A stretch of 32,000 nt of DNA from Halomicrobium mukohataei DSM 12286 (lineage in GTDB: Archaea; Halobacteriota; Halobacteria; Halobacteriales; Haloarculaceae): NCBI RefSeq assembly GCF_000023965.1, contig NC_013202.1, forward strand, positions 1,500,001 through 1,532,000, written 5' to 3'. Under the pieces are notes generated by a model. It was not told the DNA's origin. It searched no databases and was given only the letters and a program-made list of their open reading frames with translations. Of the stretch, positions 1-5,642 are shown piece by piece. A program made the position numbers and the translations under genes. Position 1 is the stretch's first letter, and each line of letters begins with the position of its first letter.

Positions 1-180
1 CGTGTGATCAAGATACTCGCGGAGGCCGTGAATCGCCACGATCACCCAATCTGCGTAGCCGTTTTCTCCTTCTTCGTACGCTGGATCTGGTTCGCCGACG
101 ACGGCTTTTTGAGCAAGCGAGACAACCCGATCAGTGAAGCGGGCGAGTTTGCTGGACACAAACTCGTCTTCCCGCTTCAC
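1..180 (-). CDS. 5' part of an IS-type transposase gene (haloarchaeal IS5/ISH8-like N-terminus) that continues past the left window edge
   Basis: I translated the minus strand by hand from GTG at 180-178, with an in-frame TAG at 186-184 just upstream. This gives 60 open codons to the edge: VKREDEFVSSKLARFTDRVVSLAQKAVVGEPDPAYEEGENGYADWVIVAIHGLREYLDHT. The pattern RFT..VVSLAQ...GYADW.IV..H.LR.YLD matches my recollection of ISH8-type IS5-family transposase N-termini. It is absent from the ORF track because it has no stop in the window. The family call is from memory only. Confidence 0.45.
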   Translation of the reverse strand, partial: MKREDEFVSSKLARFTDRVVSLAQKAVVGEPDPAYEEGENGYADWVIVAIHGLREYLDHT

Positions 181-323
181 TCCCTAGTAAGTTAGACATT
201 TAGCCGCTCTTACTAGCGTCTAAACACGCCCCATCATTCCACAATTCAGGAGCTCACGCAAATACACGGTGATCTTTTAATTAACTTCCCTACAATTGCA
301 GTTCGTAGGACAGCTGGAGCAGA

Positions 324-331
324 TTATAAAA
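324..331 (+). promoter_or_regulatory. TATA-box-like element TTATAAAA upstream of, or overlapping the start of, the small ORF
   Basis: ATTATAAAAC at 323-332 recurs at 2053-2062 in front of the second radical-SAM gene. It lies only 6 nt before ATG 337. If it is the promoter, the TSS would fall near 355 and the first in-frame ATG would be 406. An alternative AT-rich box, TTTTAATTAA at 275-284, would fit ATG 337. Confidence 0.3.
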
Positions 332-336
332 CAAGC

Positions 337-681
337 ATGAATAATTTTTATGGGAATGCCTCATGGGAAGCCGCAAACAGTGATGATGAATTTCGGACAA
401 TCTATATGTCCCGTCTTGCTGAAACCGGTCGACCGGTTCAAGAATATATACCAGTTCGCAGTGGAGGACAATTCTTCTATGATATGATCTACTGCACAAG
501 ACAAACCAAAGGCGGGAGTCCCTATATACAGGTCTTAGAAGACATGAAGGAGAAAATCGAACAACTGACCGGTGAAGATGTAGAGCGGATTCTTCGGTTT
601 ATGCGAGGAGAACAGACTAGTCTGGATCTTTTCGATCAGGGAGACGACCAACAGACTGGTTTAGGAGACTTCATGGATTAG
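337..681 (+). CDS. Small hypothetical protein (114 aa, or 91 aa from ATG 406) with two C-terminal PIP-box-like motifs
   Basis: ATG ORF lying 51 nt upstream of, and on the same strand as, the radical-SAM gene. The C-terminal tail reads EQTSLDLFDQGDDQQTGLGDFMD*. This contains QTSLDLF (nt 613-633) and QTGLGDFM (nt 652-675), which fit Q-x-x-L-x-x-F. I recognise no other domain. Confidence 0.55.
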   Translation: MNNFYGNASWEAANSDDEFRTIYMSRLAETGRPVQEYIPVRSGGQFFYDMIYCTRQTKGGSPYIQVLEDMKEKIEQLTGEDVERILRFMRGEQTSLDLFDQGDDQQTGLGDFMD

Positions 682-732
682 CTAAGTCCATACTCTTACT
701 AGGCCTCGGAGGATACGGTCAATCAAGTAATC

Positions 733-2004
733 ATGAGGCTTCATCACCAAAGGGACCAAACACAGATAGAGATTCTCCATCAAGGAGAGTCTGTAGAAAC
801 TTTCAATCAAACTCCAAAGCTGGACACTCTGCGTGAGTGTAGCAAAAATGTGGGCAAACCTTTAGAGCGAATTGATTTGTGGGATAGGGGATTATTTTGT
901 GGTCACTGCGAGGAACCCATTACTGATCGGTTTAGTGCTGATATTAACGGAAATCTACTTTGTTGGGATTGTGCCATGAATATCGACGCTGAAAGCGATC
1001 AGAGAGGAGTTTCACAAACCACTGATCCCACGAAGGCCGTTCTTTCGAACTCCGCGCTTCATCACAAAAATCTCTGTAACTACGTGATCAACGTGGCCAC
1101 TGGATGCACTCACGGATGCAAATTCTGCTACGTTCCTTCAACACCGAATATTAAGACCCGAGGAGATATGCTCAAAGAAAGAGCAGATGTAGAAGATAGT
1201 CAACGGGAATGGGGAAGCTACCTATTATACCGCGACGATCTCCCCGAACGCCTTGCTCGCAAACTAGACCGAAAGCAGAAGTGGGAAAATGAAGACGGTG
1301 GCCGCGGTGTCGTCATGATTTCCAGCGGAACAGACTGCTATCAGGATCGTCGGGCCGCTCAGATCACCCGGGGTTGTGTTATCGAACTCGTCAATCATGG
1401 GCGTCCGGTTCGCATACTCACTCGGAGTCCCGCTGTCGTACGTGACCTAGATGTGTTCAAAGCCGCAGATGGGCTGGTAACTGTCGGATCGTTGATCCCG
1501 TGCCTTGATGACGAACAGGTTCGATCTATCGAACCCGGCGCACCAGCTCCATCCACACGACTCAATGCTCTCGAAGAGATCAGCAATGCTGGTGTCCCAG
1601 TTTACGTTTCGATGTCCCCAACGTATCCGACACAGGACCGCGAAGACCTTCGTGAGCAGCTACGGATATTCAAAGAGCGCCTTGATCCTGATGTCGTATT
1701 CCACGAACCGATCAACCCACGTGGAGGCAACTTCGAGATGACTGTTCAGGCCGCTCGTGACGCAGGACAGGAAGAACTGGCCAATGAACTCGAAAAACTC
1801 CGAGACCGAGACAACTGGATCGAGTACTCGAAGCGTCAACTTACCGCTGTAGAGGAGATCGGCGAAGAACTCGATATTCCGATTCATCTTTGGCCGGATA
1901 AGCAGTTCGTAAAGTACGTGAAAGAGGGTAAAGAGCACTTCAAACGCCAGATCGAAAAGAACGACTCGCCAGAAGATTACCCACTCGGCCCAACCTCTGC
2001 CTAA
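733..2004 (+). CDS. Radical-SAM protein (SplB/COG1533 'DNA repair photolyase'-like) with an N-terminal CxxC...CxxC zinc-ribbon; paralog A
   Basis: 423-aa ATG ORF. The CX3CX2C triad is GCTHGCKFCY (C125/C129/C132, nt 1105-1128). The zinc-ribbon-like motif is CGHC-x17-CWDC (nt 898-972). Downstream blocks are SSGTDCYQD, RILTRSP and IEPGAPAP, followed by a C-terminal VVFHEPINPRG. Long identical blocks are shared with the next gene. Confidence 0.85.
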   Translation: MRLHHQRDQTQIEILHQGESVETFNQTPKLDTLRECSKNVGKPLERIDLWDRGLFCGHCEEPITDRFSADINGNLLCWDCAMNIDAESDQRGVSQTTDPTKAVLSNSALHHKNLCNYVINVATGCTHGCKFCYVPSTPNIKTRGDMLKERADVEDSQREWGSYLLYRDDLPERLARKLDRKQKWENEDGGRGVVMISSGTDCYQDRRAAQITRGCVIELVNHGRPVRILTRSPAVVRDLDVFKAADGLVTVGSLIPCLDDEQVRSIEPGAPAPSTRLNALEEISNAGVPVYVSMSPTYPTQDREDLREQLRIFKERLDPDVVFHEPINPRGGNFEMTVQAARDAGQEELANELEKLRDRDNWIEYSKRQLTAVEEIGEELDIPIHLWPDKQFVKYVKEGKEHFKRQIEKNDSPEDYPLGPTSA

Positions 2005-2053
2005 ATCACGTCGACGGCTTTAGTTTCACTTTCACTCCGGCATCTCCTCGATA

Positions 2054-2061
2054 TTATAAAA
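2054..2061 (+). promoter_or_regulatory. TATA-box-like element TTATAAAA for radical-SAM paralog B
   Basis: ATTATAAAAC at 2053-2062 matches the element at 323-332. It is centred about 37 nt upstream of ATG 2094. Assuming a typical archaeal TATA-to-TSS spacing, this favours ATG 2094 with a short leader over the GTG at 2067. Confidence 0.35.
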
Positions 2062-2093
2062 CTAGGGTGTCAAGTCATCAGTGGGACCCACCT

Positions 2094-3365
2094 ATGAAAC
2101 TAGAAACTGAGCGGGACCCTGACGGCGGCTGGTACGATCGGTTTGTCCAGCTCGTCGATGATCAAGGGCACGTCGTCGAGGAATTCGGGAAAAATCCAAC
2201 GCTCAACGAGCTTCGGGAAGCAGAGCGCCGCCACAGCACTCGAATCAACCTCTGGCAACAGGGTCTCGTTTGTGACGAATGTGGGAATCAAATTAACGAG
2301 CGATTCAGCGCTCGACAGGACGGACATCTTCTGTGCTGGGACTGTGCTACCAGCTCGGAAAGTCACGAACAGGGTGGGCTACGAATTAACGCGGACCCGA
2401 CTAAGAGCGTTCTGAGTGAATCGAAGCTCCACAAAAAGAGCCTCTGTGACTACGTGATTAACGTCGCAACGGGCTGCCGTCACGGGTGTAAGTTCTGCTA
2501 TGTTCCATCGACACCAGCGGTCGACAACCGCGATGAAATGCTCGATGACCGTGCCGATGTCGACGACCCACAGCAAGACTGGGGTGACTACCTGCTCTAC
2601 CGTGACGATCTCCCCGAGCGTGTTCAGCGAGGACTAGAGGAAACTGACTTCCAGAACTGGAAGACCACCGACCGTGGGCGGGGTATCGTCATGCTCTCCA
2701 GCGGGACAGACTGCTACCAGGACCGACGGGCCGCACAGATCACACGCGGTTGTGTTCATGAACTCATCGAGCATGATATCCCGACTCGGATACTCACCCG
2801 CAGTCCGAACGTTACCCGCGACATCGACCTTTTCAAACAGGCCAATGGGTCTCTCACTGTAGGGTCCTCCATCCCGAGTTTCGATACATCCTTGATTAGT
2901 GTCCTTGAGCCAAACGCCCCTCCACCTATGGCTCGATGGGAGGCACTGAACGAATTGTTCAAAGCTGGAGTCCCGCGCTTCGTATCGTTCTCGCCCACCT
3001 ATCCGACGATGGGTCGGGAGGATATTCACGAGGCACTTAGCTGGTTCTCCGCCATTGATCCCGAAGTGGTCTTCCACGAGCCAATAAACCCTCGTGGGAT
3101 CAATTTCGAAATGTGTATCGAGGCACTGGAGGACGAGGGATTAGAGTCTGAAGCGGACGAATTCCGAAAACTGCAGCGTCAAGGGAAATGGGTGGATTAC
3201 GCGCTCGACCAGATCGAAATGGTTCGCGACGTAGCAACTCATTTCGAGAATATTACTATCCATACCTGGCCCGGTCGTGATCTGATTGAGGCAACTAACG
3301 GCACTCAGCAAAGGAAATTCAAGCAGATGCGTCGACAGATATCCCCAGAACCGTTTGCGGAGTAG
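2094..3365 (+). CDS. Radical-SAM protein (SplB/COG1533-like) with an N-terminal zinc-ribbon; paralog B
   Basis: The ORF track starts at GTG 2067. I prefer the in-frame ATG 2094 (MKLETERD...) because of the TATA-like box at 2054-2061. The triad is GCRHGCKFCY (nt 2475-2498) and the zinc-ribbon-like motif is CDEC-x17-CWDC. Blocks identical to paralog A: YVINVATGC.HGCKFCYVPSTP, YLLYRDDLPER, SSGTDCYQDRRAAQITRGCV, VVFHEPINPRG.NFEM. Confidence 0.85.
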   Translation: MKLETERDPDGGWYDRFVQLVDDQGHVVEEFGKNPTLNELREAERRHSTRINLWQQGLVCDECGNQINERFSARQDGHLLCWDCATSSESHEQGGLRINADPTKSVLSESKLHKKSLCDYVINVATGCRHGCKFCYVPSTPAVDNRDEMLDDRADVDDPQQDWGDYLLYRDDLPERVQRGLEETDFQNWKTTDRGRGIVMLSSGTDCYQDRRAAQITRGCVHELIEHDIPTRILTRSPNVTRDIDLFKQANGSLTVGSSIPSFDTSLISVLEPNAPPPMARWEALNELFKAGVPRFVSFSPTYPTMGREDIHEALSWFSAIDPEVVFHEPINPRGINFEMCIEALEDEGLESEADEFRKLQRQGKWVDYALDQIEMVRDVATHFENITIHTWPGRDLIEATNGTQQRKFKQMRRQISPEPFAE

Positions 3366-3396
3366 CGAATAAACAAGAGCGGTAGAAAACGTCGTT

Positions 3397-3693
3397 CTAA
3401 TCGTCGTCGCCCTTGTACGCCCCTTCGCGCTTCCGAATGCTCTCGACTCGGAGCATCTTCGAATCACGCATAAGCCGACAGCCGAGACGATATCCACCGA
3501 CACGAAGTTTCTGAAACGGCGAGTTCGTCAGCGGTTCGAGAAAGTCGTCGGGATCGCGCCACTCGGAGGTGACGACTTCTTCCAGTTTGTCGATGATCCG
3601 CTGCTGGCTATCGCTCCCCAACTGTGAGAACTGGTTTTCAGCCCGCGGCGAGAATTCCCAGTCCCACCCGTCGTTACTCGTCGTCGGACCCAT
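3397..3693 (-). CDS. Type II toxin, RelE/ParE family
   Basis: I trimmed the track ORF 3397-3780 to the ATG at 3693: MGPTTSNDGWDWEFSPRAENQFSQL...QKLRVGGYRLGCRLMRDSKMLRVESIRKREGAY. The W.W.FS..A...L and LRVG.YRL....I..R..aY pattern is typical of RelE/ParE toxins. It overlaps the upstream RHH gene by 20 nt (3674-3693). Confidence 0.8.
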   Translation of the reverse strand: MGPTTSNDGWDWEFSPRAENQFSQLGSDSQQRIIDKLEEVVTSEWRDPDDFLEPLTNSPFQKLRVGGYRLGCRLMRDSKMLRVESIRKREGAYKGDDD

Positions 3694-3961
3694 ACTTCGC
3701 TTTGATGTCGTCGCTCGAAATGCCGTCACCCTCGTCGAACTGCGCTTCGCTGATCGCGATGTCCTTCCACACGCCCGCACCCTCGGGGTGGTTCACTGAA
3801 TCACGGAGCGCGTAGCGGATGAACTCGCTACGGCTGTTGAAGCCTCGCTCACGCCACGTCTCGTCGACCACGTCGAGGAACGACCGCGAGATTCGGAGGT
3901 TGATCCGGTCGATCTCAGGATCAGGGTCGTTTGAGTCGGCTTCTGACATACGCCTGTACAT
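3674..3961 (-). CDS. Type II antitoxin, ribbon-helix-helix (CopG/RHH) family
   Basis: RINLRISRSFLDVVDETWRERGFNSRSEFIRYALRD is a classic RHH strand-helix-helix. It lies directly upstream of, and overlapping, the RelE-like gene. Start is ambiguous: GTG 3970 (track), ATG 3961 (used here) or ATG 3949. Confidence 0.8.
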   Translation of the reverse strand: MYRRMSEADSNDPDPEIDRINLRISRSFLDVVDETWRERGFNSRSEFIRYALRDSVNHPEGAGVWKDIAISEAQFDEGDGISSDDIKAKYGSDDE

Positions 3962-3982
3962 CTGTTGCACTCACACAAAACG

Positions 3983-4141
3983 CTACCGCCACTTGCTCTC
4001 GACACTCGTTCGATACCGTAACCCGATCACGCTCGTGTTGAACCGCTGGATCGTCTCGGGGTCCAGTTCCCCACGCGCGTCGTCGATGTTCTCCTCGCTC
4101 TCGGCGAGGTGCGTCGGCGCTGCATCGAGCACGTCGGACAT
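3983..4141 (-). CDS. Possible 52-aa acidic ORF between the membrane-protein gene and the TA pair
   Basis: Hand translation from ATG 4141-4139 to TAG 3985-3983 gives MSDVLDAAPTHLAESEENIDDARGELDPETIQRFNTSVIGLRYRTSVESKWR. It is below the track length cutoff. Third codon positions are GC-rich and the composition is acidic, as in genuine coding sequence here. I recognise no homology. Confidence 0.2.
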   Translation of the reverse strand: MSDVLDAAPTHLAESEENIDDARGELDPETIQRFNTSVIGLRYRTSVESKWR

Positions 4142-4217
4142 CGGCGAGTCGTCGTGGGGCTCACTGGCGACGATGCGCTGGCCTCGTCGAGGAGTCGTGG
4201 CCGTTCGTCGGTGACCT

Positions 4218-4916
4218 TCAGGTGTGGACTTTTCTCGAAATGTACGACACTAGCCGAATATACATCGTGGTGATAATTGCTGCTGAAGCGCCCGAGAGTA
4301 ATGATATCACTGCAGCATCTGGAGCCCTCCACTTTCCGATGGCACCGATCGGTCTCTCAACCACAGCTGGTGTAATCAACACTTGGATGAGAGAATAAGC
4401 GTGGATAATGACGAACACGATGCCGCCAAAAAACAATATAGACAAAATTGTGGTGAATATGGCTCGAAATGCGCGCTTAGCTGTTTCAGAGTCTCTGCCA
4501 AAAATTTCGAAACGTGAGAGTTGTTCGATTGCCACTTTTGAGCCGCTGTCAATGACAAAGCCACCCAAAGCGACCAATATCCCCAAGATGATCCCTGCCG
4601 AAAGACGAGGCGAGAACTCTCTTGCGGGAACTGCGTCAAGATCTACCAGCAACTGAACCCAGGATTTGCTCAATTCGACTGAAAAGAAAAACCCGACAAC
4701 GGCAAGAATAGAGATTAGTGCCGCCCCCTGAATGCCGGAGACTGAGATCTTTGATCTCCAAGAAGTCGTCTCTGAACGTTCCTCTGATCCGTTTACATCA
4801 CCTTCTGGACGCTCCGAAACCACGAGTATCAGAAACCCCAGCGTGATGAGCCCCCATCCGACTAATTTGGCGTCGATAATTGAATTCGTAGAGTCGTCTG
4901 ATCTCACAGTGAACAC
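4218..4916 (-). CDS. Multi-pass membrane protein of unknown function, low GC
   Basis: 232-aa ORF with a GTG start at 4916. It has several long hydrophobic segments: LVGWGLITLGFLILVV, GAALISILAVVGFFF, AGIILGILVALGGFVI and FTTILSILFFGGIVFVIIHA. An AT-rich TATA-like box lies about 30 nt upstream. I recognise no family. Confidence 0.7.
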   Translation of the reverse strand: MFTVRSDDSTNSIIDAKLVGWGLITLGFLILVVSERPEGDVNGSEERSETTSWRSKISVSGIQGAALISILAVVGFFFSVELSKSWVQLLVDLDAVPAREFSPRLSAGIILGILVALGGFVIDSGSKVAIEQLSRFEIFGRDSETAKRAFRAIFTTILSILFFGGIVFVIIHAYSLIQVLITPAVVERPIGAIGKWRAPDAAVISLLSGASAAIITTMYIRLVSYISRKVHT

Positions 4917-4942
4917 AGCGTATATTCCCGTCAGATAGACTC

Positions 4943-4950
4943 TTATATAT
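4943..4950 (-). promoter_or_regulatory. TATA-like box (ATATATAA on the minus strand) for the membrane-protein gene
   Basis: It is centred about 31 nt upstream of the GTG at 4916, which is compatible with a leaderless or near-leaderless transcript. Confidence 0.3.
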
Positions 4951-5032
4951 CACTCATGTCTGCATCGAACGTTCTCTGAGTGATGCTACAAGTCTGATCG
5001 TTGGCTTTCGTGGCTCGGTACTTTCTGGGAGA

Positions 5033-5568: not shown

Positions 5569-5642
5569 TGGGCCGACGCGGATTTGAACCGCGAACCTCC
5601 CGGTTATCAGCCGAGCGCTCAACCTGATTGAGCTACCGGCCC
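5569..5642 (-). tRNA. tRNA-Ile (anticodon GAU)
   Basis: Minus strand: GGGCCGGTAGCTCAATCAGGTTGAGCGCTCGGCTGATAACCGGGAGGTTCGCGGTTCAAATCCGCGTCGGCCCA. It folds as a cloverleaf: acceptor GGGCCGG/TCGGCCC (one G-U), D stem GCTC/GAGC, anticodon stem CTCGG/CCGGG with loop CTGATAA, and T arm CGCGG-TTCAAAT-CCGCG. CCA is not encoded. Confidence 0.95.

Follow-up and report, generated by a model that had tools for sequence, protein, structure and literature searches.

TcmP proteins (TIGR04474) and their radical-SAM-type partners (Gp37/Gp68/DUF5131 or SPL-like proteins) occur widely on plasmids, prophages and defence islands, and we know of no function assigned to them; no paper addressing TcmP function was found in the literature searched. 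The locus described here lies at the start of a window of 32,000 nucleotides of the Halomicrobium mukohataei DSM 12286 genome (G000:C1:1500001-1532000; positions without a prefix refer to this window, and L004 is the 20 kb upstream of it). It has in common with the TcmP family at large the radical-SAM-type partner, the sporadic occurrence and the location on islands or plasmids, and both a 5' gene fragment and the intact relatives match the family model. It differs in that this copy is split by an insertion sequence (IS) and in that the haloarchaeal subfamily is paired with SPL/PA0069-like radical SAM proteins instead of Gp37/Gp68 (DUF5131). Moreover, the archaeal members have a C-terminal tail that resembles the PCNA-interacting peptide (PIP), whereas the bacterial TcmPs examined do not.

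Other described systems resemble the locus in part. E. coli RlmJ (the 23S rRNA m6A2030 methyltransferase) shares its fold and the SAM-binding D-x-x-x-G-x-G with TcmP, but the sequence identity is only 12-13%, and RlmJ has a DPPY motif, no clamp-binding tail and no radical-SAM partner. The PADLOC models PDC-M41 and PDC-M30 (protein A) represent candidate defence systems, and PDC-M41A is matched by the intact TcmP relatives, although only over their N-terminal two thirds (E 5e-16 to 3e-18); the radical SAM proteins of the window gave no match to the PADLOC models. The archaeal PIP-box proteins (PolB, PolD DP2, FEN1, RNase HII, UDG, NucS and NreA) carry, like TcmP, a C-terminal Q-x-x-L-x-x-F(M/W) after a flexible linker; in TcmP, however, there are two tandem copies of the motif, the binding is putative, and the carrier is an accessory RlmJ-like protein of mobile islands and not a core replication or repair factor. 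In a review by MacNeill, Nre proteins with known or possible PIP motifs are described as being encoded beside SplB-like radical SAM genes (PMC4929162). Such NreB/SplB-like pairs, the adjacency of which is taken from the literature, likewise place a protein with a known or possible PIP motif beside an SPL-like radical SAM enzyme, whereas Nre is unrelated in sequence to TcmP.

The ORF at positions 337-681 (plus strand, 114 aa, stop codon 679-681) ends in QTSLDLFDQGDDQQTGLGDFMD (also written RGEQTSLDLFDQGDDQQTGLGDFMD). It had been read in the earlier note as a whole gene, which is wrong: with near certainty it represents the C-terminal third of tcmP, this gene having been cut after codon 184 by a 934-bp IS5-family element. 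The right-hand part of this element occupies positions 1-231 on the minus strand, with the N-terminus of the transposase ending at position 180 and an inverted repeat at 216-231; the limits of the whole IS were set by BLAST against the whole genome (G000:C1:1499298-1500231). The transposase, which runs on the minus strand from position 180 into L004, matches NF033579 (IS5, E 2e-51), the 16-nt terminal inverted repeats (L004:19298-19313 and window 216-231) agree at 14 of 16 positions, and a perfect 9-bp target-site duplication, CATCATTCC, was found at 232-240 and immediately left of the IS at L004:19289-19297. A second copy of the same 934 bp, 100% identical, is located at C1:1161500-1162433. 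A DDE transposase, inverted repeats, a target duplication and multiple copies place the element in the IS5 family.

The two parts of the interrupted gene lie on either side of the element. The 5' fragment (L004:18746-19297, outside the window) matches TIGR04474 at profile positions 2-143 of 263 with 55 bits (curated cut-off 53), and since this match ends at the IS junction, an uninterrupted full-length domain is not present; the 3' fragment (positions 241-681, plus strand, codons 185-330 of the pre-insertion gene) gave no TIGR04474 match on its own in the HMM scan. When the IS and one copy of the repeat are removed, the 184 upstream codons join positions 241-681 in frame, yielding a single open frame of 330 codons. 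Two intact relatives (P0002 and P0003) share 76-79% identity with the rejoined protein, and their alignment to it stays collinear through the junction, containing no more than 2 gap columns altogether. When longer proteins were searched with the 146-residue 3' fragment, four intact relatives of 330-338 aa were obtained (81, 80, 68 and 46% identity), one of which was named three-Cys-motif partner protein by its source, and the intact relatives P0002-P0005 score 80-92 bits against TIGR04474. The assignment of the ORF as the last third of tcmP follows from the in-frame join and from the collinearity with the intact 330-332-aa relatives. Its ATG lies inside the ancestral 330-codon tcmP, where it specifies Met at residue 217, a non-conserved position (Met also in P0003 and P0004 but Leu in P0002); upstream of this ATG at 337 the frame is open back to the end of the IS.

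The last residues of the protein carry the two PIP-box-like motifs that the earlier note had reported, with coordinates and residues that were correct as first given. Motif 1 (QTSLDLF, positions 613-633, plus strand) follows the last predicted helix and is separated by an acidic linker (DQGDDQ, 634-651, plus strand), the length of which differs among relatives, from motif 2 (QTGLGDFMD, 652-678, plus strand), a PIP-box-like peptide that forms the last 9 residues and is kept in relatives. Canonical PIPs have two aromatic residues, in the place of which motif 1 has Asp and motif 2 Met-Asp. QTSLDLFD fits positions 1, 4 and 7 of the PIP box only, and QTGLGDFM fits Q-x-x-[LIM]-x-x-[FY]-[FYW/LM], its position 8 being Met, which the PolB and PolD tails of the host also have there.

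The earlier note had named a lack of conservation of the terminal motif among homologs as a refutation of its reading, but the C-terminal Q..L..F proved to be conserved. All four close relatives (46-81% identity) keep both motifs, and the acidic linker in between varies. With the 114 residues as query, HMMER returned 152 relatives, and among the representative ones of at least 250 aa a strict end (Q..[LIMV]..[FYW] followed by 0-4 residues at the C-terminus) was found in 47 of 117 and a relaxed end (the form without Q) in 75 of 117; these proportions, like those below, are descriptive, as related sequences are not independent and the counts overstate the support. As background, the strict form ends 11 of 2874 ORFs of the own genome and the relaxed form 191 of 2874 (6.6%). 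The 19 haloarchaeal TcmPs, which have several dissimilar types of C-terminal extension, end in the strict form in 12 cases and in the relaxed form in 17 (e.g. QRLGDFAD, QSGLGSFG and MSLGNFV); the relaxed motif was also found in 11 of 13 other archaeal loci, and a short TcmP from a Haladaptatus plasmid ends in QSGLGDFV. Not all archaeal TcmP tails conform: in L034, L038, L014 and L015 the Gln is absent or there are other deviations. The patterns for the scan of genome contigs were derived from an alignment of six archaeal sequences, so that its all-archaeal result is biased, and the bacterial controls were fetched separately. Taken together, the tail is a credible and conserved PIP-like motif, a reading that is well supported by these comparisons. 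Many shorter archaeal relatives end right after motif 1, which suggests that this motif was originally the terminal one and that motif 2 was added later as a second copy.

An AlphaFold2 model of the intact relative P0002, calculated with 47 relatives, had a mean pLDDT of 92 and a pTM of 0.89. Its sole low-confidence part consisted of the last 20 residues (311-330, pLDDT around 60), in which a short helical turn was modelled at 325-327; the low confidence of the linker is in line with the suggestion in the earlier note that the PIP boxes lie at the extreme C-terminus after an acidic, flexible linker. In a Foldseek search the best match of the model was E. coli RlmJ (PDB 6qe5 and 4blu, E 2.5e-8), and other class I SAM methyltransferases were matched as well. 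The SAM-binding D-x-x-x-G-x-G is invariant in the TcmP alignment, and at the catalytic position D-N-Q/E-G is found here and D-P-x-G in other TcmPs, as against (D/N)PPY or DPPY. On the basis of this model we infer that TcmP consists of an RlmJ-like Rossmann (SAM-methyltransferase-type) domain and a flexible acidic tail with one or two PIP-box peptides. Neither TcmP nor the fragment is covered by a Pfam family, TcmP had no match in PHROGs, and no relatives were found in viral contigs. TcmP was present in 20 of 301 sampled Halobacteria genomes, distributed over 13 of 80 genera, and in none of the four other genomes of the same genus.

One group of haloarchaeal TcmPs is longer, at about 390 aa (L034-L038). 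In the member at L035:1441-2640 we observed a GMT-like winged-helix domain (PF22560) in the C-terminal extension, before a Q-less M-S-L-x-x-F end; the tails of the L036 and L037 proteins are very similar to it. The winged-helix domain hints at DNA binding by the L035 protein.

Several lines of comparison point to the sliding clamp PCNA (encoded in this host at G000:C1:968363-969091) as the target of the tail. Within the genome, Q..[LIM]..[FYW] followed by 0-4 residues ends only 9 of 2874 non-overlapping long ORFs, and among these, besides the ORF with motif 2 itself, are the known clients PolB (QTGLGQFM), the large subunit of PolD (DP2, QSGIADFM), FEN1 (QTGLDDWA), RNase HII (QSSLASF) and the family-4 UDG (QRRLGDF); the remaining three are a DUF2797 protein, PurQ and a PKD-repeat protein. 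Motif 2 (QTGLGDFM) differs from the tail of the host PolB at one position and also resembles that of FEN1. Winter et al. reported that the second aromatic residue is replaced by Met in the PIP boxes of Haloferax PolB and PolD2 and by Asp in the one of PolY, and such residues were tied to a shallower PCNA pocket (PMC2737543). The Met of motif 2, for which the earlier note had pointed to degenerate archaeal PIPs, thus has its counterpart in haloarchaeal PolB and PolD, and as far as sequences can tell the "degenerate" positions of the tail are exactly in the haloarchaeal PIP style.

The style of the tail also follows the lineage. Halosimplex has FEN1 ending in QTGLDRWT and TcmP in QSGLGDFMD, and in a Hadarchaeota genome the corresponding ends are QRSLEQWT and QKKLYSFES. 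In two Bathyarchaeota genomes FEN1 ends in ..KVSLEKWFG and one TcmP in ..AKLESFFGSS; here the tails of both proteins lack the Gln, follow a basic linker and have two aromatic residues and then Gly. Judged from these pairs, the style of the TcmP tail co-varies with that of the host FEN1 tail across lineages. PIP-like tails were found in none of the eight bacterial TcmPs (from Acetobacter, Deinococcus, Agrobacterium (two), Nostoc, Nocardioides, Sinorhizobium and Rhizobium), which end right after the core domain and form a small control set for the contrast between archaea and bacteria. In most of them (six of the eight) a Gp37/Gp68 (DUF5131) gene is annotated beside or near tcmP, in line with the bacterial plasmid TcmPs, which mostly pair with DUF5131; the Sinorhizobium and Rhizobium records have no annotation near tcmP, and the Nostoc gene has an annotated radical SAM protein as neighbour instead. 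Since the untailed bacterial TcmPs share their DUF5131 partner with the tailed TcmPs of Bathyarchaeota and Hadarchaeota, the tail follows the domain of the host and not the partner. From these comparisons we consider it probable that the tail of intact TcmP binds PCNA, which would make TcmP a new candidate family of PCNA clients within a known motif class.

The DUF2797 protein (251 aa, L029:1-756, G000:C1:2241185-2241940, minus strand) ends in ...RQLQASLGAFS and may be an unrecognised PCNA client. A bacterial beta-clamp motif was considered for relatives that end in Q-x-x-L-F and was dropped, as both of those whose origin could be established proved archaeal (Thermoplasmatota and Methanolliviera).

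A conserved tail could also dock on something other than PCNA, for instance on the radical-SAM partner or on another archaeal hub protein. Short hydrophobic C-terminal peptides serve many protein-protein dockings, and tcmP is without exception accompanied by a gene for a radical-SAM-type partner. The two genes directly downstream of the tcmP fragment (733-2004 and 2067-3365, both on the plus strand) encode paralogs with a CX3CX2C motif, an N-terminal zinc ribbon and an SPL/PA0069/Rv2578c-like core, and orthologs of the first adjoin tcmP in L006, L007 and L009; tcmP and both paralogs adjoin in Halosimplex amylolyticum, Halobonum tyrrellensis and Haloarcula sebkhae, and an SPL-like radical SAM gene adjoins tcmP in all 19 haloarchaeal loci that were fetched. 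Bathyarchaeota and Hadarchaeota have DUF5131 (Gp37/Gp68) as the partner, in place of which the uncultured archaeon of L008 has an SPL-like one. The tail therefore occurs with two classes of partner (SPL-like and DUF5131) and is absent from the DUF5131-paired bacterial TcmPs, which argues against the partner as its docking site. In addition, a DUF5131-TcmP fusion from the Thermoprotei (L015) still has a related hydrophobic motif at its end, and the tail matches those of the PCNA clients of the host and their lineage-specific style. Docking on a target other than PCNA is for these reasons unlikely.

The fusion protein itself (633 aa, L015:5032-6933, from a Thermoprotei MAG) supports a physical partnership of DUF5131 and TcmP. 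In Haloarcula sebkhae the first radical SAM paralog (L009:7036-8115) is opposite in strand to tcmP and the second paralog, unlike the arrangement in the other haloarchaeal loci. In Sinorhizobium, TcmP adjoins the defence gene hna (PMC12445080), and a neighbourhood that resembles this one was seen on an Agrobacterium pAt plasmid (L021:1-5968), where two adjoining tcmP genes and DUF5131 lie beside a DEAD/DEAH helicase gene.

If PCNA is indeed the target, the terminal peptide (QTGLGDFM-D) would mimic the clamp-binding tails of PolB, PolD and FEN1 of the host, with the Leu/Phe(Met) 3-10 turn inserting into the hydrophobic pocket of PCNA and motif 1 perhaps offering a second site. Docking would tether TcmP and its partner radical-SAM enzyme or enzymes to clamp-loaded DNA at forks or repair patches, where the pair could modify or process DNA, plausibly for self-marking of a mobile element or for defence. 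The idea of the earlier note that neighbouring radical-SAM enzymes are recruited to DNA fits the conserved pairing of tcmP with radical SAM genes. DNA as the target is suggested by the RlmJ-like fold, the SPL-like/radical-SAM partners, the winged-helix domain of the L035 protein and the precedent of Nre and SplB (PMC4929162), and an archaea-specific tail in the PIP style of the host suggests that this DNA is acted on at the sliding clamp. That archaeal TcmP/radical-SAM modules are clamp-tethered systems for DNA modification or surveillance, directing radical chemistry at newly replicated or invading DNA, is nevertheless a tentative proposal, possible but on the doubtful side. If true, it would provide the first clue to what the TcmP-Gp37/Gp68 pair does, and the PCNA clients would gain a new class that is carried on mobile islands.

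In the genome studied here the situation is different from that in the intact relatives. Between the IS and its sister copy there is no sequence difference (100% identity), which indicates a recent insertion, so that no selection is needed to explain the intact frame of the fragment. As a result of the split, the half that binds SAM is cut off from the half that carries the tail; the gene is broken, the module is therefore probably inactive in this genome and the ORF a pseudogene remnant, and the tail is most likely not made here as part of a working protein. No paralog of the fragment was found elsewhere in the genome. The combined reading of an IS-split tcmP, a clamp-tethering PIP tail in the intact protein and a pseudogene in this genome is one that we regard as fairly probable.

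The earlier note had proposed instead a small clamp binder borne by a mobile element, that is, a stand-alone PCNA-binding protein of 114 aa with a recruiting or an inhibiting role. The ORF is open and starts with ATG, it has kept the complete tail, and AT-rich, TATA-like stretches occur upstream. Against this, the frame does not begin at this internal and non-conserved codon but runs upstream to the end of the IS and joins the 5' half of tcmP in frame, and all close relatives are 330-338 aa long. A word-based search among proteins of similar length matched the ORF itself only, and short matches in the representative library came, where this could be checked, from very short contigs. As for the TATA-like decamer at 323-332, it codes for conserved residues (D-Y-K-T) and sits 5 nt before the ATG at 337, too close for a promoter, and is thus unlikely to be the promoter of ORF 337-681. 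A stand-alone protein is accordingly very improbable; of the earlier interpretation the PIP-like tail stands and the small independent protein does not. The small ORF should be annotated as part of an IS-disrupted pseudogene rather than as a small clamp-binding protein.

The decamer itself, ATTATAAAAC, is common to positions 323-332 and 2053-2062, the first copy lying inside the tcmP codons.

It might also be supposed that the insertion created an expressed PCNA decoy with a new role, as the frame and the tail of the fragment are intact and the IS could provide an outward-reading promoter. Half of the fold is missing, however, and the fragment is likely to be unstable, and with so recent an insertion the intact frame says little about selection; we give this explanation a very small chance. 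A resemblance by chance or composition, without function, is hardly credible at all, for although PIP-like strings are short and degenerate and the relaxed motif is common as an ORF end, the strict motif ends only 0.3-0.4% of the ORFs here, mostly known PCNA clients, and the motif is kept at the extreme C-terminus of distant archaeal TcmPs with otherwise unrelated linkers or extensions.

The window begins within a low-GC stretch (46-55% GC over positions 1-5000, against about 66% elsewhere), and tcmP heads a module of three genes (tcmP and the two radical SAM paralogs) on this low-GC island.

Further along the window we observed several features of other kinds. On the minus strand at 3397-3970, overlapping genes for an RHH (CopG-like) and a weakly ParE/RelE-like protein form a probable type II toxin-antitoxin pair, which is not kept beside tcmP in related loci. 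A low-GC ORF of 232 aa (4218-4916, minus strand) without Pfam, PADLOC or PHROGs match is likewise absent from related tcmP loci. A gene for tRNA-Ile(GAT) (5569-5642, minus strand) is found where the low-GC island borders on GC-rich sequence and may represent the site at which the island was integrated.
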